NCBI GenBank assembly: GCA_965277715.1 | Contig: OZ255836.1 | Span: forward strand, 2,432,001-2,496,000 | Direction of reading: 5' to 3' | Length of the DNA stretch: 64,000 bases | From: Gammaproteobacteria bacterium | GTDB taxonomy: Bacteria; Pseudomonadota; Gammaproteobacteria; JBCCGL01 | Shown here: positions 8,153 through 25,620 of the stretch, one piece after another | How positions within the stretch are numbered: the first letter of the stretch is position 1 | Layout: the number at the start of each line of letters is the position of its first letter | The notes under the pieces: generated by a model | Told to the model about the DNA's origin: nothing | Databases searched by the model: none | The model's input: only the letters and a program-made list of their open reading frames with translations | Program-made: the position numbers and the translations under genes

Positions 8153-8245
8153 TTCTATAAGCCAATAAAAAAGCCTCCGGTATACGAGGCTTTAACAAAA
8201 AATACTTTGTTTATACTAAATAACTAGCCTGATCCGAATGGCACT
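8153..8245. repeat. Third copy of the orphan-cassette leader plus a 10-bp MITE end stub
   Basis: TTCTATAAGCCAATAAAAAAGCCTCCGGTATACGAGGCTTTAAC...TAACTAGCCTGA is identical to 13902-13981 and 16146-16225; GAATGGCACT at 8236-8245. Confidence 0.9.
8167..8193 (-). terminator. Rho-independent terminator-like hairpin in the leader repeat (also at ~13916-13942 and ~16160-16186)
   Basis: Minus strand AAAGCCTC-GTATACCG-GAGGCTTTTTT: GC stem followed by a U tract. Confidence 0.65.
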
Positions 8246-8323
8246 CAGGACGCTGAACAATAACTACTACTAACCCAGAACGGCAAAGCCCCATACCAAA
8301 CGGGGCTATATTCACACAAAACT

Positions 8324-8359
8324 CTATTTGATTGATATTAAATTGCATTGACCCCTTTT
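8324..8359. repeat. 36-bp direct repeat (variant TIR), second copy at 25351-25386
   Basis: CTATTTGATTGATATTAAATTGCATTGACCCCTTTT is identical at both sites. Confidence 0.9.
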
Positions 8360-8426
8360 TCGGGTTGGGTTATTTAAGAGCGAAAACCTTCGAGTGATCG
8401 GGTTTAATCGCTCTCAAATGAAAGAA

Positions 8427-8711
8427 TCAACTATAAACTTGCATATCAATAATTGTCCCTGGTCTTGCACCATCTGAGGATGTAAGAACCCAGAACTTGT
8501 TCTGTTGAGCAAATTGCGCAGACTCGAACTGCTCCTTTGTAACTCCTAAATTCGAGCGAAATTTACCACTGTTGTCAAGTATAGAAATCATATACTGTGG
8601 GTATCCAGGTGACGACATGTTGCACGTTATCGTTACGTGCCCCCAAAATAATTCGTTGCTGCTAACGGTTTCGGCTGCTTCAGCAGGTGTTGGTGTATTT
8701 TGATTAGCCAT
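8427..8711 (-). CDS. Hypothetical 94-aa protein (cassette-like cargo)
   Basis: AGAGGA RBS before ATG; plausible globular composition; no family recognised. Confidence 0.6.
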   Translation of the reverse strand: MANQNTPTPAEAAETVSSNELFWGHVTITCNMSSPGYPQYMISILDNSGKFRSNLGVTKEQFESAQFAQQNKFWVLTSSDGARPGTIIDMQVYS

Positions 8712-9075
8712 TTCTAAATCCTCTGTTTTTAAAAAAATGTGTAAATTACATTCAGGAATTTATTCTTTTGTTAGATTAAAATCCTGTTACAGATAATAGC
8801 CTATTGGTCTCTATTTACTATTACACTCTATTACACTATTAAAACTAGAAGATTAATGTTTTTCATTGGTCAGAAAGACGCATTTTTGTCATAACAGCCT
8901 GTTATCGAGGAACGAATCCTCGATAACAATATTATGTGGAATCGCGATAATTTCGCGAGACTGAGCTCACAAAGACACACTAAAATATTGATTAATATGA
9001 CAAAACCCTACGAAGGAAGGAAAAGAGGAAAAAGGATCAGAAAAGGAAAAGAAGAAAAGGAGAGAAAAGAAGGAA

Positions 9076-10394
9076 GGTTCTTCCCCGATTATTGTGAAGC
9101 CACTGGTTCCCTATCCAGCTTTCCGCAGTAAAACAAAATACTCCGCCGGTAGCTTTCAAACGAACGAAACCCTCTTGCATTCGATTTGACTGTCTGAATT
9201 TTTGAATTCAAACCCTCTGACACGGCATTACTTATTGTGTGCTTAAACCATGTCAATATGTTCGGCATGTGCGTTTTTATCATCTTGGCCACTTTCTTTA
9301 TGCTGTCCAATCGGCACCGAATTGCCCACGCATACCATGCGCTAAAGAAACGCTTTGCCCAACCCGCTGTCTTATACGTCCAAAAATCACGAAACAGTTC
9401 TTTTATCGCCCAGGCTCGGGCTGTCAATAACTGATCATGCTTGAGTGACTCAAAGTGCTCGGCTGCTTTGTTAGACAAATTTTCTTCATTTTTTAACCAG
9501 TGATAACGACTCTTTTTCAACCGGCTATCGCCCTGTGACAAAAGGTCTCTATGTTCATCACGACGGACCTGATCCACCGCCTTATTCAGGTGTTGGCTAA
9601 TATGAAAACGGTCGTGAACAATCGCACTGTCTGACAGTTTTACCTCAACAGCATTAATGAACGCAGGCCACCTATCAATCGCGACAGCTTTCACCTGTTC
9701 TCGCTGGTTATCCGTCAGCGCAACCTCCAACGCCTCCTCACAGGTTGCCTGGGTGCGATCTTTCACTCCATCCAATACTCGCCCTCCATCGATATCATTG
9801 ATGAGCGTCACATAGTCATGCCCTTTACGGTGGGACTTCTCATCAATACCCAGGTACTCAATTGTCACCAATTCCCGACGCGAAAGTCCCCGCTCGACAG
9901 CGCGGGCTTTGATGGCTTCCACTGCGTTCCAGCTAAGCCCCAGTAACTTACGCGCCTCTTCGACGCTACGTGAGGCTTGCAACACCCTGATGGAAAATAA
10001 TTCAAACAACAACGTAAAACGACTGCGCTTGCTTGCCCAGGGTAACACCATACTTTTAACACCATGCTCCAGACAATTTACTCGGGGAATGCGACTGTGT
10101 AGGCGCGTTTCAAACTGCATAGTATCCAGGTGTCTCCAGGATCGCTCTTGTGAACGGTGATCATAGAACGGACTCACTTCGCCACAGTGCGAACAAGGGC
10201 CGTGGTTGCCGCTAAATGCCAACGAAATGGATACTTTTAACCCTGAAGGGTCTAAATCAACTGATGTCACTGACCAGTCATCTGTCAGGCCCAGGAGCTG
10301 GCTGTAGTGTTCTTCAAGGCTCGATAGCACCGGAGTCTCTCAATAGCAAAGGGGGGATGAAATACTATAACCTCACACAAACCGGGGAAGAACC
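9076..10394 (-). mobile_element. ISL3-family insertion sequence with 8-bp target duplication
   Basis: Ends GGTTCTTCCCCGATT / AACCGGGGAAGAACC; AGAAGGAA duplicated at 9068-9075 and 10395-10402. Confidence 0.93.
9089..10330 (-). CDS. ISL3-family transposase
   Basis: Zn finger CSHCG...WRHLD...RVNCLEHG; GIDEK; AIDRW; HDRFH; SNAVSEGLNSKI. Confidence 0.95.
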   Translation of the reverse strand: MLSSLEEHYSQLLGLTDDWSVTSVDLDPSGLKVSISLAFSGNHGPCSHCGEVSPFYDHRSQERSWRHLDTMQFETRLHSRIPRVNCLEHGVKSMVLPWASKRSRFTLLFELFSIRVLQASRSVEEARKLLGLSWNAVEAIKARAVERGLSRRELVTIEYLGIDEKSHRKGHDYVTLINDIDGGRVLDGVKDRTQATCEEALEVALTDNQREQVKAVAIDRWPAFINAVEVKLSDSAIVHDRFHISQHLNKAVDQVRRDEHRDLLSQGDSRLKKSRYHWLKNEENLSNKAAEHFESLKHDQLLTARAWAIKELFRDFWTYKTAGWAKRFFSAWYAWAIRCRLDSIKKVAKMIKTHMPNILTWFKHTISNAVSEGLNSKIQTVKSNARGFRSFESYRRSILFYCGKLDREPVASQ

Positions 10395-10404
10395 AGAAGG
10401 AAAA

Positions 10405-11411
10405 GGGGTCAATCGTATTTAATATTTTTCAAACGGTTGCAAACCTGCTCAAACACGCCCTTCAAGCTGCCGTCTGACAGCCCACTCTTTACATAATCAA
10501 TTGCAGGAGAAAGGCTACTCAACCAGCGTTTTTAACGGCATATCCCCCAATTGCTGACAACAATATATCGCTACTTTACGAGGCAGATTCGCCCGTTGTC
10601 TCCCCCGCTGTCGCGTAAGTACATCACTCGCGTTAACGCCAAACACCGCTGCCACTGCATCGACTATAGCTGCACCGTTTGGCTTGCCCGTCACAATACG
10701 GGACAAGTCCCCCGATATGTGCATCGACTCCCGGTTTTCGGCAATATACGTCTTGAAGGATTTGTCACCCAGTATCGTCGTCACATTGCCTTTGTTATAA
10801 AAACGGCTAATGTCCTCATCAATACCTTGACCAACATATGTCTTATAAGCAACGTAACGTTGTTTAGCGCCGAGTGCACTATAGGTTGCCTCTCGATACA
10901 ACCATTCCGGTGCTTTGGCTTGGTTGATGTAAGCGTGGTAACTCGACCAGGAATAGCTATCGAGCTTATCCGCTGTTACACCCTTTACTTCTATTGGGTT
11001 ACGATGAATGTAACGGCTTAAGGGTAATAAATAGTCGTCTGCATCCACAATAATCGCTTTATAACGACCGCGAAAAAGAGGCCCATCCGTGCGTCTAAGC
11101 CGGTTGTAGCGTTGTGTGTAGATACCATTGATATGCCGCATGATGCGATCCAGGTTAGCACGAGGGGTTTCGATCAATAGATGATAATGATTACCCATCA
11201 AACAGTAAGCGTGGATGCAGGCATCAAAGCGTTTATGTGCTTCATTGAGCGTTTGTAGAAATGCCTGGTAGTAAACTTCGCCATGAAAGATGGTCTGTCT
11301 GGCTTTGCCACGATTCATAACGTGGTAGTAGGCATTTTCGTATTGTATTCGAGTAGGTCTAGGCATCGTTTAAATTTATACTATTTTGAAAATATTAAAT
11401 AGGATTGACCC
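10405..11411 (-). mobile_element. TIR-flanked Y1/HUH (RAYT-related) transposase element, copy 1
   Basis: GGGGTCAATCGTATTTAATATTTTTCAAA at 10405 and inverted TTTGAAAATATTAAATAGGATTGACCC ending at 11411 enclose the gene. Confidence 0.85.
10515..11366 (-). CDS. Y1 HUH transposase (REP-associated type) with C-terminal HTH, C-terminally truncated
   Basis: MPRPTRI...YHVMNRG; YCLMGNHYHLL (HUH); GPLFRGRY; YIHRNP (catalytic Tyr); WSSY. A ~23-bp deletion versus copies 2 and 3 gives an early stop. Confidence 0.9.
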   Translation of the reverse strand: MPRPTRIQYENAYYHVMNRGKARQTIFHGEVYYQAFLQTLNEAHKRFDACIHAYCLMGNHYHLLIETPRANLDRIMRHINGIYTQRYNRLRRTDGPLFRGRYKAIIVDADDYLLPLSRYIHRNPIEVKGVTADKLDSYSWSSYHAYINQAKAPEWLYREATYSALGAKQRYVAYKTYVGQGIDEDISRFYNKGNVTTILGDKSFKTYIAENRESMHISGDLSRIVTGKPNGAAIVDAVAAVFGVNASDVLTRQRGRQRANLPRKVAIYCCQQLGDMPLKTLVE

Positions 11412-11606
11412 GAATGGCACTTCCTTAAGGCGTAAGCAACTGATAGTAAAGAGTTTATTTATTCTTTCTAAGAAACAAAAATGATATTTTGAAAGTTGCC
11501 GCCAATGATAACCGGGATAGTTTTACAAATATTGCTTTCAAAAACCATATGCCAAGTTATCTTAACCAAACACGTAATACCAATACTTTCAAATACTTAC
11601 AGCTTA
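11412..11606. mobile_element. IS4-type MITE (right TIR lost)
   Basis: Starts GAATGGCACTTCCTTAAG; body nearly identical to 16229-16436 and 25125-25333. Confidence 0.85.
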
Positions 11607-11617
11607 CGAAAAAGGGG

Positions 11618-12493
11618 TCAATCGTATTTAATATTTTTCAAACGGTTGCAAACCTGCTCAAACACGCCCTTCAAGCTGCCGTCTGACAGCCCACTCTTTA
11701 CATAATCAATTGCAGGAGAAAGGCTACTAACACGACTATATCCAAACATATCAACCAGCGTTTTTAACGGCATATCTCCCAATTGCTGACAACAATATAT
11801 CGCTACTTTACGAGGCAGATTCACCCGTTGTCTCCCCCGCTGTCGCGTAAGTACATCACTCGCGTTAACGCCAAACACCGCTGCCACTGCATCGACTATA
11901 GCTGCACCGTTTGGCTTGTCCGTCACAATAAGGGACAAGTCCCCCGATATGTGCATCGACTCCCGGTTTTCGGCAATATACGTCTTGAAAGATTCGTCAC
12001 CCAGTATCGTCGTCACATTGCCTTTGTTATAAAAACGGCTAATGTCCTCATCAATACCTTGACCAACATATGTCTTATAAGCAACGTAACGTTGTTTAGC
12101 GCCGAGTGCACTATAGGTTGCCTCTCGATACAACCATTCCGGTGCTTTGGCTTGGTTGATGTAAGCGTGGTAACTCGACCAGGAATAGCTATCGAGCTTA
12201 TCCGCTGTTACACTCTTTGACTTCTATTGGGTTACGATGAATGTAACGACTTAAGGGTAATAAGTAGTCGTCTGCATCCACAATAATCGCTTTATAACGA
12301 CCGCGAAAAAGAGGCCCATCCGTGCGTCTAAGCCGGTTGTAGCGTTGTGTGTAGATACCATTGATATGCCGCATGATGCGATCCAGATTAGCACGAGGGG
12401 TTTCGATCAATAGATGATAATGATTACCCATCAAACAGTAAGCGTGGATGCAGGCATCAAAGCGTTTATGTGCTTCATTGAGCGTTTGTAGAA
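11618..12493 (-). pseudogene. Y1 HUH transposase copy 2 (5'-deleted, frameshifted near 12215)
   Basis: Near-identical to copy 1, split over two frames; stop TGA overlaps the TGACCCC TIR; homology ends at 12493. Confidence 0.9.
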
Positions 12494-12555
12494 CTGAACG
12501 CTAAAAATTGAATGAACGATTAAAAAATTGTTGAATTTAACTGCGGGTCCATATA
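12494..12555 (+). mobile_element. Isolated right end of the IS1111/IS110 element
   Basis: CTGAACGCTAAAAA...TTGTTGAATTTAACTGCGGGTCCATATA matches 21779-21840 and again abuts TGACCCC. Confidence 0.8.
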
Positions 12556-12615
12556 TGACCCCTTTGACCTTTCCCCTTTGACCTTTTTTTGTGTTCTGGC
12601 ATTGCCAATGGAGTG

Positions 12616-13020
12616 CTATTTGAATTGTTTTTTTAAATCAGAAAAAAATGCCAACGCAATTATCGCCCCATCGCTCATTAAGAAAATAGTTTTTGTGATT
12701 CGCTCTATCGGCGCAGATATCTCAATACCACTAAATGGCGCCAAGAAAATCAAGATAGAAATATCAATAAAAAGTAATAGCCATATCGCCCAACGGTTCA
12801 AAGATACAAGCCCTGTATAACAAATAAAACTTACGGCCAAAACTGCCCAAAATAGATATTCTGCTCCAGGAACTATCGAGCCGTATCCATCAATACGCAG
12901 AAGACTCTGGGTATTTTCATCAAAACTCTCCCAATAGACATCTCTGAAGAATGTCCACACCATGTTCGCGCTAAATGAGGTCAGCACTAAACATCGAAAG
13001 ACGGTTCTTGTTTCAACCAT
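12616..13020 (-). CDS. Putative membrane immunity protein (orphan cassette 1)
   Basis: Directly downstream of an Rhs-CT; several hydrophobic segments; AT-rich. Confidence 0.7.
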   Translation of the reverse strand: MVETRTVFRCLVLTSFSANMVWTFFRDVYWESFDENTQSLLRIDGYGSIVPGAEYLFWAVLAVSFICYTGLVSLNRWAIWLLLFIDISILIFLAPFSGIEISAPIERITKTIFLMSDGAIIALAFFSDLKKQFK

Positions 13021-13037
13021 GACTAATCAACTTTCGG

Positions 13038-13868
13038 TTACTTGCAGGAACACAGACTAGGCCCTCCAGAAGAATTACCACCATAATACGGATCATTTCC
13101 CTGACAAAATGAGCCGGGGACAGGCTGAGACGGAGGCGGCTGAACTGGGCATGAGCAACTAGGTTGTTTTCTGCGCGATGGCGGCCGCTTCGAATGTGGT
13201 ACCCTTGGATCATTCAAATTCTCAAGCAGTTCATGAAGAGGCCTGTTAAATCCAGGCGTCCGATATATCTCTCCATCAGGGTCGAAATAGATAAGCGGGT
13301 TCGCAAGCACATACAAAAACAAATTAGCATCTCCTGCTTTAAAGTTCTGTATACCAAATTGTTCTATAACTCCGTGAATACCTAACGGATCAACTGATAT
13401 ATATCGCCCAATGCTTGGATCGTAATACCGGAAGTAGTTGTAATGCAGTTGTGATTCACTGTCGTAATACTGCCCAACAAACCGCAAATTCACAACAACA
13501 TCTTTACCGTTGCCATCTGGATCACTTTTACTCAGCGTATCACCAAATGCTTCACCCTCCCAACGCCATACAATATTCCCACCTGAATCCATCGCAAAAC
13601 GGGGCGTCATCAGGTGATCAGTGTGAAGGTAGTAGATTGTATCGCTATCTGCAATAGCATCATATTCAATTTGTGCTATAGGCGCATAATCCAGTCAGAT
13701 ATAATCCTTTATAGGTTCTCCTCGCTCATTCGTTTCACTTATCAGCATTCCCTGAAAATCATAATATTAGACGGTGGTGCTAATAGTATTATCCGTATTA
13801 ACCACCACTTTACGCGTGCGCTGCCCCATCGCGTTATGGATGTAAGTCGCCTTTAGTGCGCCTTCGAT
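13038..13868 (-). pseudogene. Orphan Rhs core remnant + C-terminal toxin (cassette 1)
   Basis: Core copy of 26484-26080 with two nonsense changes (near 13696 and 13769); NLRFVGQY, RYYDP, DPLG...DPDG; distinct Pro/Cys-rich CT (open 13038-13610). Confidence 0.88.
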
Positions 13869-13985
13869 TCAGATCAAAAAAACAATAGCTTGTTATTACC
13901 ATTCTATAAGCCAATAAAAAAGCCTCCGGTATACGAGGCTTTAACAAAAAATACTTTGTTTATACTAAATAACTAGCCTGACCCC
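13869..13985 (-). repeat. Conserved leader of orphan cassettes 1 and 2 (copy at 16113-16228)
   Basis: Identical ~117 bp running from GGGGTCAGGCTAG to the same Rhs junction (ATCGAAGGCGCACTA). Confidence 0.9.
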
Positions 13986-13997
13986 TTTTCTTAGAGA

Positions 13998-14065
13998 GCT
14001 TAAGGAAGTGCCATTCGGGTCAGGTGTTGAATTGCTAGTTTTAATGGTTCCTCCCCGGTTTGTGG
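13998..14065. repeat. Stubs of a MITE right end and an ISL3 end
   Basis: GCTTAAGGAAGTGCCATTC-GGGTCA (13998-14022); GGTTCCTCCCCGGTTTGTG at 14046 resembles the ISL3 end at 10394. Confidence 0.7.
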
Positions 14066-14085
14066 GGAAAAAAGGGGTCAAGGCA

Positions 14086-14293
14086 GAATGGCACTTCCTT
14101 AAGCTGTAAGTATTTGAAAGTATTGGTATTACGTACTTGGTTCAGATAACTTAGCATATGGTTCTTGAAAGCAATATTTGTAAAACTATCCCGGTTATCA
14201 TTGGCGGCAACTTTCAAAATATCATTTTTTTTCTTAGAAAGAATAAATAAACTCTTTACTATCAGTTGCTTACGTCTTAAGGAAGTGCCATTC
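14086..14293 (-). mobile_element. IS4-type MITE (inverted copy)
   Basis: 18-bp TIRs GAATGGCACTTCCTTAAG / CTTAAGGAAGTGCCATTC; flanked by GGGGTCA (14074) and TGACCCC (14299). Confidence 0.9.
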
Positions 14294-14327
14294 TAGCCTG
14301 ACCCCTTTTTCTTTGTTTTCATTTTTC

Positions 14328-15104
14328 TCACGTGAGTATAACATCAACAGCTTTACCTCCTTCTAATTCAATTTGATCAAAACTAGCTAAGCATTTTTTT
14401 AGTTTTTTTTGCAAATGGGGTTTCAAATAAGGATAGACATTTTTTTCAGGTATGCGTTTTAGTCGCAGAAAAATGCATAGAGAGTATGCAAATTCGATTT
14501 CACTCAAGTAACCAATACATTGAGATTGCCAACCTATAGATTCAATATCTGAATCTTGGCTAAAAGTAAATGCAGAGTTTAATGAAAAAACCCCAAAACC
14601 TATAAAAACATCGATCATATCTATTGCAAACTCCCAATTTTCTTCTCCCCCAGGCGGATAACTATTTATTGTAGAACTTAAACAACAAGCTAGCTGGTGA
14701 GAAAGTATGGCTATAAGTTTCATAGGGCTATGCAACAAAGAAGGGGCATATGAAATTATAGTTTTATGATTATCTTCATATATATCGCCCAATGGATATC
14801 TGGGGCTATTTGATATAAGAATACCTGGAGAAACACAATCATCTGGCTCAGAATTTTGCTCACGTAACTCAAAATCCCACTCTTCCATCCCAGCGTGTTT
14901 TTTCACAAATGAAAAAATTTGTTCCGGAAAGTCCTCCGATTCATTTACTAAAATAGGAAAAAAATCATCTGTTGGCAAGATTAATTCTGTCTTCTCTAAA
15001 AAATAATCTTTTCCTAATTCAGATAGAAGCCACTTATAAGTTTCTATTTGAAAATAAATATCTTCATCTGAAAGAATTTTATTCTCTTTAAATAAACTAA
15101 ACAT
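14328..15104 (-). CDS. Hypothetical 258-aa protein in the immunity position (cassette 2)
   Basis: Long AT-rich ORF; LIAILSHQLA resembles a degenerate HExxH; D..VF.GFG.F..N and GYLSE motifs. Confidence 0.7.
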   Translation of the reverse strand: MFSLFKENKILSDEDIYFQIETYKWLLSELGKDYFLEKTELILPTDDFFPILVNESEDFPEQIFSFVKKHAGMEEWDFELREQNSEPDDCVSPGILISNSPRYPLGDIYEDNHKTIISYAPSLLHSPMKLIAILSHQLACCLSSTINSYPPGGEENWEFAIDMIDVFIGFGVFSLNSAFTFSQDSDIESIGWQSQCIGYLSEIEFAYSLCIFLRLKRIPEKNVYPYLKPHLQKKLKKCLASFDQIELEGGKAVDVILT

Positions 15105-15209
15105 TACTAATACTACTCTTAATATTTAACTAACGTTATTAAATCAACCCAAGCTTTCTGCCTATTAATTTCTAAGAGATTAAAAACGCTTACAACGACC
15201 TAAAACCAT

Positions 15210-16073
15210 TTAAGAACAATACCCAGTCTCATCGGCGGGGAATCTAGGTGGCCAGGTCTGAGGTGGCCAGGTGTTCTTTGGATCTGGAAACTCTGGTAAT
15301 TTTGGCCATACTTGATCTGGGTCTGGAAGGTTTTGCCGAGTTCGCTCTCTATACTCACCTTCTCTCACTTTTTGCTCCTGCTCTCGCTGAGCTTTTCGAG
15401 CTTCTCTATTAGATGGTGTACGTACTGGTATATTCCGCAGAGAAGTATAATTCTCTCCCATACTTGGATAAAATCTGCCACGATGCCAAGTACCAGAACG
15501 CCCTCCATAGGAACCAGATGTCCGAGGATTGCTTGTGGTTCTTCCTCTCGACAAACCATAATAGTCACTCCAGTAAAGTGGATTTCCCTCAACATACCCG
15601 TAAGTATTAATCCCACCATATAGTCCAATCGGATCGTGGGTTATATACCTTCCAGTAGTAGGGTCATAGTATCGGAAGTAGTTATAGTGAAGTTGTGATT
15701 CACTGTCATAATACTGCCCAGCAAACCGCAAATTCACAACAACATCTTTACCGTTGCCATCTGGATCACTTTTACTCAGCGTATCACCAAATGCTTCACC
15801 CTCCCAACGCCATACAATATTCCCACCTGAATCCGTCGCAAAACGGGGCGTCATCAGGTGATCGGTGTGAAGATAGTAGATTGTATCGCTATCTGCAATA
15901 GCATCATATTCAATTTGTGCTATAGGCGCATAATCCAGCCAGATATAATCCTTTATAGGTTCTCCTCGCTCATTCGTTTCACTTATCAGCATTCCCTGAA
16001 AATCATAATGGTAGACGGTGGTGCTAATAGTATTATCCGTATTAACCACCACTTTACGCGTGCGCTGCCCCAT
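15210..16073 (-). CDS. Orphan Rhs core + C-terminal toxin (cassette 2)
   Basis: HTDHL.TP, NLRFAGQY, RYYDP, DPIG...NP...DYYGL, then a unique Arg/Pro-rich CT. Confidence 0.88.
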   Translation of the reverse strand: MGQRTRKVVVNTDNTISTTVYHYDFQGMLISETNERGEPIKDYIWLDYAPIAQIEYDAIADSDTIYYLHTDHLMTPRFATDSGGNIVWRWEGEAFGDTLSKSDPDGNGKDVVVNLRFAGQYYDSESQLHYNYFRYYDPTTGRYITHDPIGLYGGINTYGYVEGNPLYWSDYYGLSRGRTTSNPRTSGSYGGRSGTWHRGRFYPSMGENYTSLRNIPVRTPSNREARKAQREQEQKVREGEYRERTRQNLPDPDQVWPKLPEFPDPKNTWPPQTWPPRFPADETGYCS

Positions 16074-16228
16074 CGCGTTATGGATGTAAGTCGCCTTTAG
16101 TGCGCCTTCGATTCAGATCAAAAAAACAATAGCTTGTTATTACCATTCTATAAGCCAATAAAAAAGCCTCCGGTATACGAGGCTTTAACAAAAAATACTT
16201 TGTTTATACTAAATAACTAGCCTGACCC

Positions 16229-16436
16229 GAATGGCACTTCCTTAAGACGTAAGCAACTGATAGTAAAGAGTTTATTTATTCTTTCTAAGAAAAAAAATGA
16301 TATTTTGAAAGTTGCCGCCAATGATAACCGGGATAGTTTTACAAATATTGCTTTCAAGAACCATATGCCAAGTTATCTGAACCAAGCACGTAATACCAAT
16401 ACTTTCAAATACTTACAGCTTAAGGAAGTGCCATTC
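16229..16436 (+). mobile_element. IS4-type MITE, complete, with 11-bp target duplication
   Basis: Perfect 18-bp TIRs; TAGCCTGACCC duplicated at 16218-16228 and 16437-16447. Confidence 0.93.
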
Positions 16437-16562
16437 TAGCCTGACCCCTTTTATTCTTAAAAAAAAGCCAAGAGATTCACGCCCGAAATCAGACGAAGCA
16501 TGGACTCGCGAACTGTCTGACTTCTTATTGGGTGTGAATAAACTTATCGAACAGGATGATTT

Positions 16563-16868: not shown

Positions 16869-16876
16869 ATTAAGTC

Positions 16877-17761: not shown

Positions 17762-18049
17762 CGCGTTACTGCGCACCTGTCCATGGCTTACGCCGCTATC
17801 GCGCTTCAGCCCTGGCCAGTTTGTTGGTCGCTCCTGCGCGTCCTGCGCTCGCGACATTAGTGCATCCCTGCACGTCGCCCACCCACCCGTGTCAGGAACA
17901 GGGTGGCTCCAGCCAGCCCAAAAAGCGTGCTGTCTTCCACTCCCCCTGTCCCTGGCACTCCCCATTTTTTAGTCGCTAATGTGGCTGGGGCTTCGATTAG
18001 CCAAGGTGGCGTCGGGTAGAGCGGCCTTCCTGTGTCTCCCTTTACCTTA

Positions 18050-18131
18050 GCACCGTGCTCGGGTCGTCAAGGCCAAACCCTACGGGTGCTCCGCTGTGCT
18101 GCGCAGCCTTGACAACCCTGCGCTCGATGCA
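18050..18131 (+). promoter_or_regulatory. Long imperfect hairpin containing TTGACA, Frpo/ssDNA-promoter-like
   Basis: GGGTCGTCAAGGC (18061) pairs with GCCTTGACAACCC (18106-18118); lies upstream of a strong RBS. Confidence 0.45.
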
Positions 18132-18181
18132 CGGAAAAGGCAGCCCCAGGAATCCCTCCGGGGCATTAGCAGGAGAAACAA

Positions 18182-18394
18182 ATGAAACATCATCTAATTC
18201 TTACACCGCCTCAAGCCTTTATAGATCGTTGTGAACAAGACGGGGTTAAACCCGAACGGGTATTGAAAGGGTTTATTGCCGATCTGTGTGAGTTGTATGA
18301 AGGGGATTATCTGAGCAATGGCAGTGATGAGCGAATGAAAGCAGAGGAGTACTACAACCGGGTAGGGTATCAGTACTGGAAGGAGTGCAAATAA
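18182..18394 (+). CDS. Conserved small hypothetical protein (plasmid/ICE-like)
   Basis: AGGAGA RBS; second, inverted copy at 23185-23365; followed by hairpin GCCGGGG-TTTAT-CCTCGGC. Confidence 0.75.
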   Translation: MKHHLILTPPQAFIDRCEQDGVKPERVLKGFIADLCELYEGDYLSNGSDERMKAEEYYNRVGYQYWKECK

Positions 18395-18619
18395 TCATCG
18401 TCCAAGGGCCGGGGTTTATCCTCGGCTCTTTCCCGGCGTTGGTATTGGGGACTGGCGGCTAAAGAAAAAAAGCACTTGCAAAGCGGATGAATTTAGTGGA
18501 AAAGGTGTGTCTAGGTAAAATTTTTAGAGGTATAGGGTTGTATCAGGGGAATTGTGCGTTAAGTGATTGTCCTTACTGGGAAAAACCGGCGGCGAACGAT
18601 GAGTGGGCATCGGAGCAAG

Positions 18620-19161
18620 TACTTGCTGGGCAGTATTTTGATCAAGAAACCAAACTGCACTATAACTACTTCCGGTATTACGATCCAAGTACAGGGCGAT
18701 ATGTAACTCATGATCCGATTGGGTTATACGGTGGATTTAATACTTATGGATATGCCTATCAAAATCCACTTTATTGGATAGATTTATTCGGCTTGGATGT
18801 TATTTGTGAAGATGGTGTAGTAAAGCCAACTGATCCAACTCTTCTTGATATTTTGAAAAAAATAGATGAAAAATACCCAAATAAAGATGTCAATGTTACA
18901 AGTGGCACTAGAACACCGGAGCATCAAGAACGGCTTAGGCCTGGTACTGGGTACGGTACTAACGGTACAAAAGTAAGTGATCATGTCAAAGATCGTGCTG
19001 CAGATGTTAAAGTTGATGGTGTTTCATCATCTGATGTTGCAGATCTTGCAAGGGAATTAGGAGCGTCTGGAACTATACCATATAAAAACCACACACATGT
19101 TGATACAAATCCTAATAGGCAATATCATCCTAGGCCATCAGCTTTGCCATCATCACAATGA
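18620..19161 (+). CDS. Orphan Rhs-CT with peptidase M15-like (D-Ala-D-Ala Zn peptidase fold) toxin (cassette 4, inverted)
   Basis: LAGQYFDQET...DPIG...DLFGL, then VTSGTRT, SDH...AAD and HTHVD motifs; 29 bp identical to the main rhs at 26068-26096; ORF open from 18487. Confidence 0.82.
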
Positions 19162-19604
19162 AATTAATTAAATTTTTATTTTTAATAATTAATTTATTTT
19201 CTTTCCATGCTAATGCTGATGAGGTGTTTCCTTTAGAGCTAGAGAAGGTTGATAGGCTTCAGTGGTATGGCAATATTTTTAAAATGGAGATGGGCCCATT
19301 GGATATGAGTAACAATATTCGCTATAGGATTTTATATATGAAGGAGGAAGCTTATCTTGTATATTTTGAAAAGCTATACGAGGATGATGAGGGTTTGATT
19401 CGACTTCGTGATAGTTATTTCGTTAATTTTTTTGATGTATTAAAGAATATAGATAGATCATACGATTTTGTAACCATAGATTTTTTTTATTGGATTTCAG
19501 AGTCAGTGATCAAAGTTAAGACTAATAAGGGGTTTTTTATTATTTATTCTGAAAATGATAAATGGTTCGTAACTGCTCACCCCCGAAATTCCCAGTTAGA
19601 ATAA
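19158..19604 (+). CDS. Putative periplasmic immunity protein (cassette 4)
   Basis: ATGA overlap with the toxin stop; signal peptide MKLIKFLFLIINLFSFHANA. Confidence 0.78.
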   Translation: MKLIKFLFLIINLFSFHANADEVFPLELEKVDRLQWYGNIFKMEMGPLDMSNNIRYRILYMKEEAYLVYFEKLYEDDEGLIRLRDSYFVNFFDVLKNIDRSYDFVTIDFFYWISESVIKVKTNKGFFIIYSENDKWFVTAHPRNSQLE

Positions 19605-19631
19605 TAAATACAAATGAAAGGGATCATATAT

Positions 19632-21191
19632 CAATGGCACTAAGTTAAGCGGTTTTAGCGGGTAAAATAAACGAAAAAATAACTGTAATAAACCCAATAA
19701 AAAAGGCTGAAATGTTATAATTTTGTATGAAAAATACAACCTTATTTCTACCCGGATTCAACATCCAAACACTCCGCAAAACACCCCGTTCAGCCATTCA
19801 AATCTTGCACGATAAGATAGCAAAAATACGTCACAAATCACTGAGTGAACTACCTGTTTTTCTTGGCGATATTATACCCACGAATATTCTTAAACCGAAT
19901 GATTTTGGTGTGAATAGTCGTCGACGTATTTTCAGTAAAGAAAATACTTTCTGGTTGTTTTTTTCACAAATAATGAACGCCGATGGTGGCTGTAAAGAAG
20001 TCGTTAGACAACTGCAAAATGTCGCCCACAACCAAGGCATTCCCATACCTTCATCATCCACCTCCGCCTATTGCCAAGCACGTAAAAAACTACCCATGGA
20101 CGATCTTAAAAACGTATTTTCAGGGACGTGTCGATTATCGCCACCTCAACCCAAAGCGCTCCAAGGTCGACCGGTTATCGTTGCCGATGGGACAGGCCTA
20201 TCCATGCCCGATACGCCCGCGAATCAACAAACTTACCCACAACCGAAATCACAAAAACAGGGATGCGGATTTCCTCAAGCACGGCTTTTAGCTTGTTTTA
20301 ATCTTTATAGCGGTTTAATTCTGAGCTATGCACTAGGAAATAAAAAAAGTCATGAGCTAAGACTTTTAGAAGAACAATGGGATACCTTCAATGAAGGTGA
20401 CATTTTCTTAGGTGATAAAGGTTTTTGCAGCTTCTACGATATTGACTGCCTCTCTCGACGAACGGTTGACAGTGTCGTTACATTGGCGCGGAGAACGCCC
20501 AGCACTGCCTCCCAGGCCAAAAAGAAGATAGCCGATAATGACCTTCATATTGAATGGCAAAAACCTAAACACACAAAAGCGACCCGTTACACAAAAGAGC
20601 AGCATAGCGACCTTCCAAAGACCTTAACTTTACGACAAATACACGTCAGTATTGTACGAAAAGGATTTAGGACGAACCATTTTTATATCATCACGACACT
20701 ACTTGATGCTCAGCAATATCCCGCTATAGAAATTATCGACCTCTATGCACAGCGCTGGAATGTGGAACTGTATTTTCGCAATATTAAAACCACCATGGGT
20801 ATGGATATATTACGCTGTAAAACACCTGATATGGTTCGTAAGGAAATCATCATGCACATGATTGTTTACAACACGATCAGGCACATCATGTGTGTCGCTT
20901 CATACCGACATGACACACCGGTTGATCGGCTAAGTCTTAAAGGTGTTTTGCAAACACTCCGACAAAGCACTTCATCACTTGGTAGTGGGCAGAGTCCAGC
21001 ACAAAAAAGACGGCAATATCTTGATTATTTATATGCAGCGATTGCGGATGATCGTGTGCTTCATCGACCTTTTAGATTTGAACCAAGAGTGGTAAAAAGG
21101 CGACCTAAACCACGGGCATTAATGACTCGACCAAGGAACGTTTTAAAAACTGAATATTGGCAAGCTAAAGCGGCTTAACTTAGTGCCATTG
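19632..21191 (+). mobile_element. IS4-family (IS4 subgroup) insertion sequence
   Basis: Perfect 19-bp TIRs CAATGGCACTAAGTTAAGC; flanks are not duplicated. Confidence 0.92.
19727..21178 (+). CDS. IS4-family DDE transposase
   Basis: ADGT, GFPQAR, LGDKGF, LY..RWNVELYFRNIK (YREK), EPRVVKRRPK. Confidence 0.93.
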   Translation: MKNTTLFLPGFNIQTLRKTPRSAIQILHDKIAKIRHKSLSELPVFLGDIIPTNILKPNDFGVNSRRRIFSKENTFWLFFSQIMNADGGCKEVVRQLQNVAHNQGIPIPSSSTSAYCQARKKLPMDDLKNVFSGTCRLSPPQPKALQGRPVIVADGTGLSMPDTPANQQTYPQPKSQKQGCGFPQARLLACFNLYSGLILSYALGNKKSHELRLLEEQWDTFNEGDIFLGDKGFCSFYDIDCLSRRTVDSVVTLARRTPSTASQAKKKIADNDLHIEWQKPKHTKATRYTKEQHSDLPKTLTLRQIHVSIVRKGFRTNHFYIITTLLDAQQYPAIEIIDLYAQRWNVELYFRNIKTTMGMDILRCKTPDMVRKEIIMHMIVYNTIRHIMCVASYRHDTPVDRLSLKGVLQTLRQSTSSLGSGQSPAQKRRQYLDYLYAAIADDRVLHRPFRFEPRVVKRRPKPRALMTRPRNVLKTEYWQAKAA

Positions 21192-21549
21192 GCCTCTGAT
21201 CACCACTGCCTTGTTTACAGCAATGGGCGATCCGGGTTTTTATAAAAACGGGCGTGAGTTTTCCGCCTTTTTGGGTCTCGTTCCTCGTCAATATAGTTCG
21301 GGGAGCAAAACGCAACTCAAAGGTATCAGTAAACGCGGGGACGAACACGTGCGCACTTTGTTGATACAGGGGGCGCAAGCGGCATTAAGTCGAATGCCTA
21401 AACACGATGATGGGCTAAGTCGTTGGGCCTGTCGTGTCAAAGCACGTCGGGGCCATTGTGTGGCGGCGGTGGCATTGGCCAATAAGCTCGCCAGAATTAA
21501 CTGGGCGGTAGCGGCTAATAATACAACTTACGTGTATAAAACAGCTTAA
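21192..21549 (+). pseudogene. IS110/IS1111 transposase C-terminal fragment
   Basis: F.NGREFSAFLGLVPRQYSSG.K..L.GISKRGD...RTLLIQGA...A.VALANKLARI.WA; cut at the IS4 end. Confidence 0.9.
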
Positions 21550-21840
21550 TAACGTCGTTGAAGATTTCTTACCACGAGGTAGCGAAAGAGCAGTAAATGG
21601 TATAACAGGTTAAACCGGCTCAGACAGAACCTGGAGGGGGTCATGGTCTTCACAGACCGATTGCTTGATGAGGTGTCTGAGCACGGTTCCCATTATGGCT
21701 CTGGACGGATAAACAAATACAATCCGTCCTATTGAGAAGCCGAATATATGACTGCTAACCTTATTTACTGTGGCTGCTCTGAACGCTAAAAAATGAATGA
21801 ACGATTAAAAAATTGTTGAATTTAACTGCGGGTCCATATA
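21550..21840 (+). ncRNA. IS1111 right non-coding end, predicted bridge/seek RNA
   Basis: Stem GCTCAGACA(21618)/TGTCTGAGC(21674) with inner hairpin GGTCT-TCAC-AGACC; second hairpin GGACGGAT/ATCCGTCC; TTGAAT -35 and GGGTCCATATA end. Confidence 0.6.
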
Positions 21841-21882
21841 TGACCCCTTTTACTGATCCCTTTTCTCTTTTCTCTCTCATTT

Positions 21883-22449
21883 TTAATCTTTAAGTCTTTC
21901 ACTATAAGGATCTTTAGCTGCCACAGATATTGTTAGCCCTATACATTGAACAAAAATCAATATTCCTAACATACGAAACAAAAACCCTTTGTGGCCTTTC
22001 ATCAATAAAATTGCTAAATACTTTTTTGCAAATATATGCCCTAAATTCGATGCACGTTCATAATATTGCAACGCCCTTTCTTTATCTGATGTTACACCAC
22101 GCCCTATATCGTATATCCAACCAAGCCGAAACAAAGCAGGTGAATATTTATTTTCTGCTGCTTTAAGATACCAAATTTTAGTTTCTTCAAAATCACCTTG
22201 CTTCGCATAGAGTTTAGCTAAATAAAATTGCGCCTCTGAAGATCCAAGTTTCGCCGCATGCTTATAATAGAAAAAAGATTTTTCAAAGTCTTTTTCAACC
22301 CCTAATCCCTTCTGATACATCCAACCAAGAAAAACTTGACTAGGGACAGAACCTTCTGCAGCTAGTTTTTTGTATATTAAAAAGGCTTTTTTGTATTCTT
22401 CATCATAGTAATGCTGCTCAGCAATTGTATATTGATCTTTATTTGACAT
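21883..22449 (-). CDS. Sel1-repeat (TPR) immunity protein (cassette 5)
   Basis: Repeated LG..Y..G.GV.KD..KA..YY..AA..G Sel1 units. Confidence 0.88.
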   Translation of the reverse strand: MSNKDQYTIAEQHYYDEEYKKAFLIYKKLAAEGSVPSQVFLGWMYQKGLGVEKDFEKSFFYYKHAAKLGSSEAQFYLAKLYAKQGDFEETKIWYLKAAENKYSPALFRLGWIYDIGRGVTSDKERALQYYERASNLGHIFAKKYLAILLMKGHKGFLFRMLGILIFVQCIGLTISVAAKDPYSERLKD

Positions 22450-22468
22450 AAGTTTAAATGCTCATAGT

Positions 22469-22960
22469 AATTAAACACTACTAGGCGGTTTAGGAGGTAA
22501 AGTTGGATTACTAGGATCAACCGGCGATGCTGGTGGATCATAAGGCTGTTCAGCAGGAGGAGGATTTCGATTAGGAAGTCTGGGTGGTCTAGGCGAACCA
22601 GCCCCCCCCCATCTTGTGCATCATCAACCTGTTTAGAAAGAAGCCTACATAAAAGATATGCGATCATTGCGCCTTTGCTTGGCCTCTTTGGAGGTTTGCA
22701 CTTATCTTTTTCTTTTGGTTTCTTATTATCACTGGTAGAACACTGCTGAGCTGCTAAACCAAATAAATCAAAAAAACCAAATAAATTAAAAAAATTAAAA
22801 AAAGATTAGTGGATTACTCCCAACATAAGCATAAGTATTAATTCCTCCATAAAGACCTATAGGATCACTATTTATATATCTCCCTGTCGTGGGACCGTAA
22901 GTGCGGAAGTAGTTGTAATGTAAGTTGGTTTCACGATCAAAATACTGCCCAGCAAGTACT
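22469..22960 (-). pseudogene. Orphan Rhs-CT, disrupted (cassette 5)
   Basis: LAGQYFDRETNLHYNYFRTY...DPIGLYGGINTYAYVGSNP, then an AT-rich micro-duplication (~22757-22805) and a poly-G frameshift; Pro-rich CT. Confidence 0.8.
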
Positions 22961-23365
22961 TGCTCCGACGACCACCTACACCAACAAAACCATTTTCACC
23001 TGACACAACAATCACTTAACACACAATTTCCCAGGGACAACAACACACCTCTAAAAGTTTTACCTAGACACACCTTTTCCGCTAAATCACCCCATTTTGC
23101 AAGTACTTTTTTCTTTTAGCCGCCAGTCCCCGATACCAACACCAGGAAACAGCCGGGGATAAACCCCGGCCCTTGGGCGGTGGTTATTTGCATTCCCTCC
23201 AGTACGGATACCCTACTCGGTTGTAGTATTCCTCTGCTTTCATTCGCTCATCACTGCCATTGCTCAGATAATCCCCTTCATACAGTTCGCAAAGATCTGC
23301 GATAAACCCTTTTAACACCCGTTCGGGTTTAACCCCTTCTTGTTCACAACGATCTATAAAAGCTT
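22961..23365 (-). repeat. Inverted paralog of 18214-18620 (5'-truncated small ORF + hairpin + spacer)
   Basis: Reverse complement matches AAGC(C/T)TTTATAGATCGTTGTGAACAAGA...GGGGACTGGCGGCTAAAGAAAAAAAG...TCGGAGCAAGTACTTGCTGGG. Confidence 0.85.
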
Positions 23366-23556
23366 TATGGTATAGATGGGTAAAATATCAGATTTTAATA
23401 GGGTAAAAATATTTTTTGTTATGATCAGAGCGTGGCAAAAACATCGGAAAAATGAACAATATTATGATCGATAATTTGGGAATTTATACGATCAGAAAGC
23501 GGTACGCTACAAGAAAGTCGCACGCTACAATATTTTTATGAATCTGCGTTCTTATT

Positions 23557-23973
23557 TTAAATATCAAACCCCAAAGAAATTTTTAATTTTGAAAGACGAT
23601 CAAGTAGTTGCCAGTCAAATATATCAGCATAACTAATATATTTATCTTTCTCGCCAAAAATAACTAAGGAAAACCTCCCTCCAGACAAGAACAATCCAGA
23701 CCAATATTGATCGTCTTTTTCAAACTCTTCTAAAATCCCCGCTATTAAATCAGTTCCACATAACCCCTTTTCGTTTTCCAGTCTTAAACAGCAATATGAA
23801 TGGTCATATTTTCCATCAAGCCTTTTGCCTTTAGGTGTTTTTCGCTGACTATTTGCTTTCCATATGCGAAACGGATTAATACCAAGCTTTTTTGCTGCAA
23901 ACTCAAGATTTTCTTCAGGATGTTTAATTTGAAATGAAATTTTAAATTTGTGATTTACCATACCCAAACTCAT
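23557..23973 (-). CDS. DUF4279-like immunity protein (cassette 6)
   Basis: ISFQIKHP...LG..P...W......TPKG..L.G.Y..SY..; L..L..L.I.L..D C-terminus. Confidence 0.65.
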   Translation of the reverse strand: MSLGMVNHKFKISFQIKHPEENLEFAAKKLGINPFRIWKANSQRKTPKGKRLDGKYDHSYCCLRLENEKGLCGTDLIAGILEEFEKDDQYWSGLFLSGGRFSLVIFGEKDKYISYADIFDWQLLDRLSKLKISLGFDI

Positions 23974-23975
23974 AA

Positions 23976-24072
23976 ATTATTCACACAGGCCTGTAGGTCT
24001 ATTCGTATAATCATCCGCTGGGCCATGATTTACAGAAGGTCCATCGGGATTGCTAGTTATTACATCGTCATT
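23976..24072 (-). pseudogene. C-terminal remnant of a toxin gene cut by the Y1 element
   Basis: NDDVITSNPDGPSVNHGPADDYTNRPTGLCE* ends 2 bp before the immunity start. Confidence 0.55.
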
Positions 24073-24098
24073 AGAGCAGAAAAAAGAAAAGAAAAAAA

Positions 24099-25124
24099 GG
24101 GGTCAATCGTATTTAATATTTTTCAAACGGTTGCAAACCTGCTCAAACACGCCCTTCAAGCTGCCGTCTGACAGCCCACTCTTTACATAATCAATTGCAG
24201 GAGAAAGGCTACTAACACGACTATATCCAAACATATCAACCAGCGTTTTTAACGGCATATCCCCCAATTGCTGACAACAATATATCGCTACTTTACGAGG
24301 CAGATTCGCCCGTTGTCTCCCCCGCTGTCGCGTAAGTACATCACTCGCGTTAACGCCAAACACCGCTGCCACTACATCGAATATAGCTGCACCGTTTGGC
24401 TTGTCCGTCACAATAAGGGACAAGTCCCCCGATATGTGCATCGACGGTTTTCGGCAATATACGTCTTGAAGGATTTGTCACCCAGTATCGTCGCCACATT
24501 GCCTTTGTTATAAAAACGGCTAATGTCCTCATCAATACCTCGACCAACATATGTCTTATAAGCAACGTAACGTTGTTTAGCACCGAGTGCACTATAGGCT
24601 GCCTCTCGATACAACCATTCTGGTGCTTTGGCTTGGTTGATGTAAGCGTGGTAACTCGACCAGGAATAGCTATCGAGCTTATCCGCTGTTACACCTTTTA
24701 CTTCTATTGGGTTACGATGAATGTAACGGCTTAAGGGTAATAAGTAGTCATCTGCATCCACAATAATCGCTGTATAACGACCGCGAAAAAGAGGCCCATC
24801 CGTGCGTCTAAGCCGGTTGTAGCGTTGTGTGTAGATACCATTGATATGCCGCATGATGCGATCCAGGTTAGCACGAGGGGTTTCGATCAATAGATGATAA
24901 TGATTACCCATCAAACAGTAAGCGTGGATGCAGGCATCAAAGCGTTTATGTGCTTCATTGAGCGTTTGTAGAAATGCCTGGTAGTAAACTTCGCCATGAA
25001 AGATGGTCTGTCTGGCTTTGCCACGATTCATAACGTGGTAGTAGGCATTTTCGTATTGTATTCGAGTAGGTCTAGGCATCGTTTAAATTTATACTATTTT
25101 GAAAATATTAAATAGGATTGACCC
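24099..25124 (-). mobile_element. TIR-flanked Y1/HUH transposase element, copy 3 (gene 24103-25079, frameshift near 24445)
   Basis: Same TIRs as copy 1; the first 223 aa keep HUH and YIHRNP; a 4-bp deletion separates the C-terminal HTH. Confidence 0.88.
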
Positions 25125-25333
25125 GAATGGCACTTCCTTAAGGCGTAAGCAACTGATAGTAAAGAGTTTATTTATTCTTTCTAAGAAACAAAAATGATAT
25201 TTTGAAAGTTGCCGCCAATGATAACCGGGATAGTTTTACAAATATTGCTTTCAAAAACCATATGCCAAGTTATCTTAACCAAACACGTAATACCAATACT
25301 TTCAAATACTTACAGCTTAAGGAAGTGCCATTC
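25125..25333 (+). mobile_element. IS4-type MITE, complete
   Basis: 18-bp TIRs; flanks AGGATTGACCC / AGGGTTGATTC look like a decayed 11-bp duplication. Confidence 0.9.
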
Positions 25334-25399
25334 AGGGTTGATTCCTTTTACTATTTGATTGATATTAAATTGCATTGACCCCTTTTATGCAGAGCGCTA

Positions 25400-25570
25400 T
25401 CACCTAGACAATAAACTACCCACAATAAATAGAGTGCAGCAAAAAATTAACACTAATACTGAAAAACCCACAAAACCAGATAAGTCACTATTTTCATCAT
25501 ATTGTTTCTTGAACAAATACTTTCCTAAAATATTTCCTATAAGCCTAGAAAAAAAATAAATAAATTCCAT
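25400..25570 (-). CDS. 56-aa membrane protein, putative immunity of the main Rhs (below ORF-track cutoff)
   Basis: MEFIYFFSRLIGNILGKYLFKKQYDENSDLSGFVGFSVLVLIFCCTLFIVGSLLSR*; TAAGGG RBS-like sequence; first gene after rhs. Confidence 0.6.
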   Translation of the reverse strand: MEFIYFFSRLIGNILGKYLFKKQYDENSDLSGFVGFSVLVLIFCCTLFIVGSLLSR

Positions 25571-25620
25571 ACCCTTACTTAAATTTAAATAGCTAAAAAA
25601 ATAGACATATAAAATATACT

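Follow-up and report, generated by a model that had tools for sequence, protein, structure and literature searches.

Rhs toxin-immunity modules that end at the tip of a TIRYT/TIRtron element suggest that the element's Y1 enzyme helps to bring in new modules

Introduction

Rhs polymorphic-toxin loci combine a main gene with orphan modules, each made of a core fragment, a variable C-terminal toxin domain (CT) and an immunity gene, and displacement of the C terminus by homologous recombination has been described (Jackson 2009, PMC2935791; Poole 2011, PMC3150448), the first origin of the circular intermediate being left open by Jackson 2009. The TIRYT/TIRtron element consists of a Y1 HUH transposase gene with a Bac_DnaA_C tail, and its terminal inverted repeats (TIRs) occur in dimers or clusters (Di Nocera 2013, PMC3733652); the TIRs of TnpA-REP subclass 2.1.2 have the consensus GGGG[AT][CG]A[CG] (Quentin 2018, PMC6006769). 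In the available text of these two papers, no role, target or cleavage is described for TIRYTs. Here, we analyze a stretch of 64,000 nucleotides of a gammaproteobacterial genome (contig OZ255836.1, positions 2,432,001 to 2,496,000, forward strand; hereafter the window), which contains a Rhs locus whose modules end at the tip of such an element, and this arrangement suggests that the enzyme of the element helps to bring in new modules. Both the TIRYT/TIRtron element and the Rhs orphan arrays are already known, and what is new is their link.

Two questions meet at this locus, namely, what the widespread TIRYTs do and how a new Rhs module obtains its 3' junction when only its 5' side has homology. 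Like the systems known for C-terminal displacement, the locus has a main gene and orphan core-CT-immunity modules, but whereas the models in the cited texts rely on core homology only, the 3' junction here falls at a fixed motif. Cleavage by HUH enzymes of the Y1 type yields a 5'-phosphotyrosine and a free 3'-OH; for TnpA-REP, a nick-extend-rejoin model leading to tandem copies has been proposed (PMC3333891).

Results

The motif that punctuates the locus, AAAGGGRTCA, is the tip of the TIR of a TIRYT/TIRtron. All three Y1 copies of the window have a Bac_DnaA_C tail (PF08299; 35.2 bits in copy 2 and 34.0 bits in copy 1, with a cutoff of 31.5), and copies 1 and 3 match Y1_Tnp (PF01797) with an E value of 2e-15; the match to NF047646, at 58 bits, is below the cutoff of 80 for that family, and no PDB sequence match was found for Y1. 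The protein sequence has the HUH motif (H60-Y61-H62) and a YIHRNP motif, the tyrosine of which we take to be the catalytic residue. The ∼28-nt TIRs begin with GGGGTCAA, which agrees with the GGGGWSAS consensus at 7 of 8 letters, and the tip of the one-TIR stumps designated type T, GGGGTCAG, agrees at all 8. A previous reading made from the sequence only had placed inverted repeats around all three copies and the stop codon of the gene inside TGACCCC. The three copies and their TIRs are present, but the left TIR is kept in only two of them, both clipped by a miniature inverted-repeat transposable element (MITE), copy 2 having lost its 5' part together with its left TIR, and the stop codon lies inside TGACCCC in copies 1 and 2. 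In a comparison set of 77 homologous loci, drawn from the best 80 of 574 matches, the layout is largely constant among the loci listed, GGGGTCA preceding the ATG by ∼47 nt and TGACCCC lying at the stop codon, which argues that the motif is a TIR tip and not an attC site. The window element thus resembles TIRYTs and subclass 2.1.2, as far as the cited texts describe them, in its Y1 HUH domain and Bac_DnaA_C tail, in the TIR start GGGG[AT][CG]A, in a TIR that overlaps the gene end and in its clustered TIRs; additional here are the oriented link to toxin-immunity genes and the one-TIR stumps at orphan starts.

In the window, AAAGGGRTCA occurs 13 times, always within 8349-25385, and the remaining 47 kb have no match; the mean of shuffled sequences is 0.18, and none of 100 shuffles reached 13. 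These 13 matches are not 13 independent sites, since the 11-nt target duplication of a MITE (16218-16228 and 16437-16447) and short tandem duplications (21841/21854) double some copies. As the sequence-only reading had noticed, the motif lies 3' of seven of the eight cargo or immunity genes, between 12 and 111 nt beyond the stop codon (14 nt for the gene ending at 25400, 19 for 21883, 12 for 19604, 111 for 16563, 19 for 14328, 50 for 12616 and 68 for 8427), no motif following the stop at 23557, the sole exception; it was also right that orphans 1 and 2 start with GGGGTCA, since the same GGGGTCAGGCTAG leader opens both. Immunity genes were assigned by position throughout the window, and only two candidates match a family (DUF4288 for the gene at 16563 and Sel1 for that at 21883); the open reading frame (ORF) at 8427 has no toxin gene in front of it. 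Read this way, and once the IS1111-type insertions described below are counted, the left end of a TIRtron, whether whole or damaged, closes nearly every module of the window. The motif both marks the 3' boundary of the toxin-immunity modules, as previously supposed, and is the tip of the Y1 element's own TIR.

To place this link in other genomes, Rhs loci were collected by their core from 57 metagenome contigs and from a 300-genome sample of the class (30 best loci plus further regions); 6 of 136 immunity rows that ended early without a motif and, over all sets, 17 cores without an immunity call were left out before the counts. Among the remaining 130 immunity candidates, GGGG[AT]CA is found within 150 nt past the stop codon in 21 (12 of 49 on metagenome contigs and 9 of 81 in the class sample) and its reverse complement in 1, with a shuffle expectation of 2.6; control genes from the same DNA have the motif in 8 of 440 cases, and AT-rich ones in 2 of 92 (Fisher p of 7e-9 for the enrichment). 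Genome wide, WAGGGGTCA showed no overall excess over its backwards control in five other genomes (33 versus 62, 26 versus 33, 95 versus 70, 21 versus 36 and 54 versus 54), so it is not a dispersed repeat family. Where a Y1 gene is present within 3 kb downstream of an immunity candidate, it is on the same strand in 19 cases (15 loci) and on the opposite strand in none, against a background in which genes upstream of TIRYTs are co-oriented in 57 of 92 cases (62%). Three of these 15 Y1-bearing loci hold REP-type RAYTs instead of TIRtrons. Rhs homology was found in 7 of the 77 loci collected by Y1, and all 7 are ordered Rhs-immunity-TIRtron on one strand, with an insertion sequence (IS) gene between in two of them. 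The link between Rhs modules and the TIR tip is recurrent in unrelated genomes and fixed in orientation; it is general, not universal. A search for contact-dependent growth inhibition toxins in 299 genomes gave only two weak matches. Two further observations concern the same kind of neighborhood: REP-type RAYTs with GTAG-like hairpins stand behind Rhs immunity genes in loci L177, L236, L263 and L264, co-oriented where the Y1 gene was detected, and a gene of the SMI1/KNR4 immunity family lies directly upstream of another TIRtron of Aliikangiella maris (L077:238-702).

The position of the junctions is informative. Of 74 pairs of immunity genes with common downstream DNA, 14, from five genomes including the window, start sharing at the motif in both members, the homology setting in 4 to 8 nt before GGGG; many of the other 60 pairs share Y1 coding DNA or Rhs core DNA. 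A. maris has 21 TIR matches, of which 7 consist of a left-TIR stump of 29 nt that has no transposase and is fused to Rhs coding DNA; seven different upstream sequences precede these stumps. Beside the motif, all seven read GGGT, a derived state that the ends with a transposase do not share; because these derived letters are common to the seven stumps only, the crossover is confined to ∼9 nt. A one-ended piece without transposase cannot insert seven times as an IS, which argues that the seven joints were made within those ∼9 nt at the tip, and recombination from core to core cannot create such joints. Different modules are thus joined to constant DNA at the motif, which supports the sequence-only reading in part. 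At their 5' ends, the modules show Rhs-core homology and no second dedicated site, and the immunity genes have no common sequence that an inserting element could recognize. In an empty-site comparison, the flanks were substantially matched in only 1 other of 121 genomes and in 1 other of 58, which yielded no usable empty site.

Other loci preserve larger arrangements. L118 and L242 consist of repeated core-CT-immunity-TIRtron units in which the right TIR of an intact TIRtron is within ∼7 to 45 nt of the core of the next orphan, and mini or deleted TIRtrons precede cores in L101, L172 and L230. Among 71 perfect tandem duplications in 2.1 Mb of loci, 46 contain the motif; the 52 motif-containing duplication units (35 loci) mostly begin 6 to 12 nt outside it, with no common dinucleotide at their starts by eye. 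Similar scars are found in assemblies titled complete (L037 and L053), and an assembly artifact is possible. Stacks of short tandem duplications are also seen just outside TIR tips in L007, L010, L013, L025, L029, L041, L045, L106 and others, and many contigs end there.

The locus itself comprises an apparently truncated main Rhs gene, orphan core-CT-immunity modules, three broken Y1 copies, an IS4 element, four IS4-type MITEs, IS110-family remnants and an ISL3 element. The features of a Rhs polymorphic-toxin locus are present (YD repeats, core, variable CT, downstream small ORF and orphan core fragments), PF05593, PF03527 and TIGR03696 (YD repeats and Rhs-associated core) being matched in the main gene and in four orphans, and the core homology between the main gene and the orphans extends over 400 to 570 bp. 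The main gene (25621-30756, minus strand) encodes Ig-like N-terminal domains, the core and CT0, and appears to be 5' truncated, as no long frame lies upstream. Downstream of it on the minus strand are Imm0, a 56-aa candidate immunity gene by position only (25400-25570), and a type A site (25351-25386), which has the same sequence as 8324-8359 and is a tandem copy, now diverged, of the left TIR of the TIRtron. An IS4-type MITE of ∼209 bp (25125-25333) is inserted 11 nt inside the left TIR of TIRtron copy 1 (24094-25124, minus strand), a Y1 HUH gene with a DnaA_C tail and a frameshift near 24444, whose right TIR is joined to a CT fragment; this 3' fragment and a 138-aa candidate immunity gene (23557-24093, minus strand) form the only module without the motif. 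A GGGATCA inside the main gene (26492-26498) is 8 nt from the start of the orphan homology, and its next 9 letters, perhaps by chance, are also in the type T end; a role as a cryptic exchange site is not supported, its spacing being unlike that of the T end and the T leader having no open frame into the core.

The next minus-strand module (21883-23365) has a leader and core remnant of a second Rhs lineage, a broken CT and the Sel1-repeat candidate immunity gene (21883-22449), and ends at a type B site (21841-21863), a doubled TIR tip with an IS1111-type IS directly behind it. On the plus strand are an IS110-family (IS1111-type) remnant, made of the 3' end of the transposase and the downstream noncoding region (21192-21840), an IS4-family element with an intact transposase and one end just inside a TIR tip (19632-21191), and an inverted module (18182-19626) with a 70-aa ORF, a core remnant with a Peptidase_M15 CT (18487-19161), a candidate immunity gene (19158-19604) and a TIR tip (19617-19626). 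The segments 18182-18754 and 22824-23365 form an inverted pair with 83% identity, each with the 70-aa ORF, of no known family, and the core remnant of the second lineage. Back on the minus strand, orphan 3 (16563-17768) has a core fragment, CT3 and the DUF4288 candidate immunity gene (16563-16868), and is followed by a type T site, a TIR stump with a terminator-like leader (16113-16452) interrupted by a MITE (16229-16436) whose 11-nt target is exactly duplicated. Orphan 2 (14328-16112, minus strand) has a core fragment, CT2 and a 258-aa candidate immunity gene (14328-15104). Two facing TIR tips (14299-14308 and 14071-14080) then surround an inverted MITE (14086-14293) in 14071-14310, and a type T leader (13870-13988) opens the unit 12616-13988 (minus strand) with the broken core of orphan 1, CT1 and a 134-aa candidate immunity gene (12616-13020).

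Beyond orphan 1, still on the minus strand, a TIR tip and a 62-nt IS1111-type end (12494-12565) are fused to the interior of TIRtron copy 2 (11609-12493), which is 5' truncated and frameshifted and has an intact right TIR. A truncated MITE (11412-11606) separates it from TIRtron copy 3 (10401-11411, minus strand), whose 283-aa frame keeps H60-Y61-H62 and YIHRNP and whose tail is broken by a 23-nt deletion. An ISL3 element (9078-10395, minus strand; transposase, 9089-10330) adjoins the right TIR, and the array closes (8149-8711, minus strand) with a 94-aa ORF of no known family (8427-8711), the type A site 8324-8359, and the last type T stump with its terminator (8149-8245). No PHROG family was found for seven small ORFs.

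Other mobile elements aim at the same tip: IS4, the IS4-type MITE and the IS1111-type IS all target it, and they account for some of the motif copies. The MITE insertions lie 11 nt within TIR tips, the 11-nt target being exactly duplicated at 16218/16437, and IS4-like ends or the MITE are seen 10 to 11 nt inside TIR tips in four genomes, i.e., in the window (16229-16436 and 19632-21191), L147, L198 and L009. In the IS110-family remnant, the noncoding region downstream of the transposase contains GGGGTCA (21637) and then CGATTG (21658), which is the TIR read outward, and this joint occurrence was found in 1 of 20,000 shuffles. The order agrees with the seekRNA rule of IS1111 elements, in which target-matching segments lie downstream of the transposase with the top-strand complement first (PMC11187229). 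Guide-like segments of the IS1111-type IS in 21550-21840 thus match the TIRtron TIR, and an RNA-guided IS is apparently programmed against the ends of another element; the left end of this remnant is missing in the window. Because its noncoding region matches the TIR, the sites at 12565, 21850 and 19617 are best regarded as TIR tips hit by the IS1111-type IS, the site at 12565 being most simply the left tip of TIRtron copy 2. We had considered that type B sites record cassette switching and dropped this idea, since insertion of the IS1111-type element into a TIR tip explains the DNA shared there.

Contigs of four sequencing runs from three studies were compared with window positions 12400-27600. 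The Y1, IS4 and IS110 pieces are covered many times more deeply by contigs than the unique modules are, depth not being copy number; in run X1, which may be the source of the window, the summed depth over Y1 is ∼10 to 40 times that of the unique modules, which hints at many copies without giving their number. Other Y1 copies in the contigs do not have the frameshift of copy 1, so that they probably supply an intact enzyme in trans. In run X4, which belongs to another study, contigs cover the main Rhs gene and orphan 2 with few changed letters and leave the CT1, orphan 3, M15, Sel1 and 23557 modules uncovered, a gap that proves nothing. The X4 joints from 14302 and 13992 to 24095, from 16452 to 21829 and from 12562 to 23366 have sides of <30 letters and lie within repeats, and we gave them little weight for this reason. 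Weak observations are an X1/X3 contig in which the core is joined through unknown DNA to the type B site at 12563 and an X4 contig of Imm2 whose match breaks off next to the motif, at 14306, and leaves 9 letters unexplained. Among the 15 of 20 joints listed, none is a clean motif-to-motif excision of a single module.

Discussion

Anatomy, enrichment, orientation and junction positions are established by these results, and from them we infer nicking and exchange events. We propose that the two junctions have different origins, the 3' one being made at the TIR tip by the Y1 enzyme and the 5' one by homologous recombination in the Rhs core, and we judge this proposal about as apt to be right as wrong. 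TIRtrons, IS-like elements found at many unrelated places, would repeatedly have been recruited to the 3' edge of Rhs modules, the left (promoter) end always facing the immunity gene and acting as a one-sided recombination site. Y1 would nick the coding strand ∼4 to 11 nt outside GGGGTCA, leaving a 5'-phosphotyrosine on the TIR side, and the TIR end would then be joined to another 3'-OH, either that of the element's own extended flank, yielding a short tandem duplication, or one just past an incoming or copied immunity gene, yielding a new immunity-TIR junction. RecA-type recombination in the core would supply the other junction, so that the new module replaces or displaces the old one, and longer runs from the right TIR would generate tandem core fragment-CT-immunity-TIRtron units. 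Internal copies would decay to one-TIR stumps that still accept partners, with the enzyme probably supplied in trans by copies elsewhere. Such nick-and-transfer at the tip would account for the fixed orientation, the variable gap past the stop codon, the lack of a common sequence in the immunity genes and the reuse of stumps, and motif-anchored tandem duplications are what the nick-extend-rejoin model for TnpA-REP would predict (PMC3333891).

The broader claim, that REP-class Y1 HUH transposases have repeatedly been co-opted as the missing second half of Rhs toxin switching, welding the TIR tip beyond a new immunity gene while core homology serves the opposite side, is tentative, and we place it slightly short of even. 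If true, toxin-immunity modules would be acquired by a capture system that is half site specific and half homologous, TIRYTs would receive a first function, and the intermediates left unexplained by the C-terminal displacement model would have an origin. The site is defined, the zone of nicking is predicted, and A. maris, of which a cultured strain exists, has an intact enzyme (L004, 10001-10972) and seven stumps.

Several findings weigh against this proposal. All three Y1 copies of the window are broken, by a 4-nt deletion (copy 1), a 5' truncation and a 1-nt insertion (copy 2) and a 23-nt deletion (copy 3), and IS1111 targeting explains three of the seven window sites (12565, 21850 and 19617). 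No Rhs homology is present in the DNA examined around 70 of 77 close Y1 relatives, many of these contigs being short, and the neighbors of TIRYTs are mixed (68 scanned). Rhs arrays also form without the motif, since 109 of 130 Rhs immunity genes lack its strict form and a Nitrospirota sample, from which one immunity row and five cores had been left out, has it in only 3 of 56, with 0.95 expected. The Rhs-linked Y1s are not one clade, with 10 changes, at least 3 of them forced, in a quick tree with biased sampling from which 49 rows with too little upstream DNA were excluded. Loci and rows are not fully independent, several coming from one genome or array; gene conversion may later have spread the derived letters among the A. 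maris stumps; and the junction offsets (4 to 8 nt) and duplication starts (6 to 12 nt) overlap only partly.

Much of this would suit a scenario in which the enzyme moves no modules, and which we consider possible but unlikely. TIRtrons would be multicopy ISs landing left end first behind short AT-rich co-oriented genes, at sites that are safe and perhaps single stranded during transcription or replication; Rhs arrays would collect them, other ISs would wreck them, and core-to-core recombination would spread the scars. That most TIRtrons (70 of 77) are elsewhere than at Rhs, that the Rhs-linked Y1s are polyphyletic and that the depth in run X1 hints at many copies all fit, as do the at least five transposase-bearing left ends of A. 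maris, several of them behind non-Rhs genes, and the REP-type RAYTs that fill the same niche in L236, L263 and L264. However, mere landing would have to hit seven of eight genes in 17 kb while sparing the other 47 kb, produce a 19:0 orientation from a 62% background and favor Rhs immunity genes over AT-rich controls, and it leaves unexplained how the same stump, with a single end and no transposase, acquired seven different partners. Even then, it would be of interest that the link is oriented and that IS4 and an RNA-guided IS1111-type element both target the TIR tip. Homology-anchored illegitimate recombination is a mechanism known from work on natural transformation. Here, the cores would pair and host enzymes would resolve the far end at the G-rich motif shared by TIRs, with no Y1 catalysis; the junctions within a 9-nt common block and the persistence of sites although all window copies are broken are compatible with it, but none of the seven A. 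maris junctions uses an 18-nt matched block deeper in the stump, and neither the origin of the donors' TIR nor the motif-anchored tandem duplications would be explained, which makes this route improbable in our view.

The sequence-only reading had favored integron-like sites, and we now think a two-site system of that kind very doubtful. In it, Y1 would excise motif-to-motif cassettes as circles and reinsert them at another motif, much as relaxases recombine at oriT; HUH relaxases can indeed do so (PMC5714925), and orphans flanked by directly repeated motifs exist in the window, L010, L017, L117 and A. maris. Like integron cassettes, the modules here vary and stand in an array, each with a short conserved site behind it at which IS1111-type elements aim, but the locus differs in having no hairpin at the site, no nearby integrase and 5' ends set by gene homology. 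The attC hairpin test was negative (fold z of -0.9 to +0.1 at seven solo sites), GTTRRRY and RYYYAAC are both present within 120 nt at only two of eight sites, and no IntI tyrosine recombinase was found among 24 ORFs in and left of the locus; among 24 further ORFs, the sole integrase-family gene (61754-62680) is 36 kb away, amid housekeeping genes, and encodes a 308-aa tyrosine recombinase that is XerC/D-like by size and domains. Moreover, identical stump-plus-core leaders precede different CT and immunity genes, which means that exchange of the CT must still go through the core, and the contig joints gave no clean excision of a single module.

Returning to Y1-made 3' junctions, the closest precedents are other HUH systems. 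As in the one-ended rolling-circle capture by ISCR1/IS91 next to class 1 integrons, a HUH transposase lies beside captured genes and conserved segments are duplicated (PMC3575428 and PMC5714925), and the tandem units of L118 and L242 fit one-ended mobilization, with no intermediate seen. ISCRs have no inverted repeats and have dissimilar oriIS and terIS ends (PMC3575428); unlike them, the window element is a REP-class Y1 with two near-identical TIRs and toxin-immunity cargo, and it is not an ISCR. It resembles TnpA-REP/BIME amplification in E. coli in the 5'-phosphotyrosine chemistry and in the nick-extend-rejoin route to tandem copies (Ton-Hoang 2012, PMC3333891), but the E. coli enzyme uses a REP hairpin, a GTAG guide and cleavage between C and T, whereas the window TIRs have no hairpins.

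The association is real, recurrent and apparently unreported, its mechanism being our inference. Rhs is unmentioned in the main texts of PMC3733652, PMC6006769 and Bertels 2017 (PMC5581495), and the word transposase is missing from the main texts of PMC2935791, PMC3150448 and a 2026 Stenotrophomonas Rhs preprint; one preprint with both RAYT and rhs handles them separately in its available text. We found no paper on a Rhs-TIRYT link in a search whose scope left most subscription journals and supplements outside, so that a prior mention is possible, nor did the literature searched describe the oriented link or the IS4 and IS1111-type targeting of the TIR tip.

Two features of the window lie apart from the Rhs locus. 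To its left (558-7641) is a cluster resembling those for ribosomally synthesized and posttranslationally modified peptides, with a kinase/AAA ATPase, two genes for thiazole/oxazole-modified microcin precursors of the BMA_0021 family and a YcaO protein. Farther to the right, tandem repeats of 42 to 48 nt (47976-48320) lie within the gene of a 979-aa type II secretion secretin.

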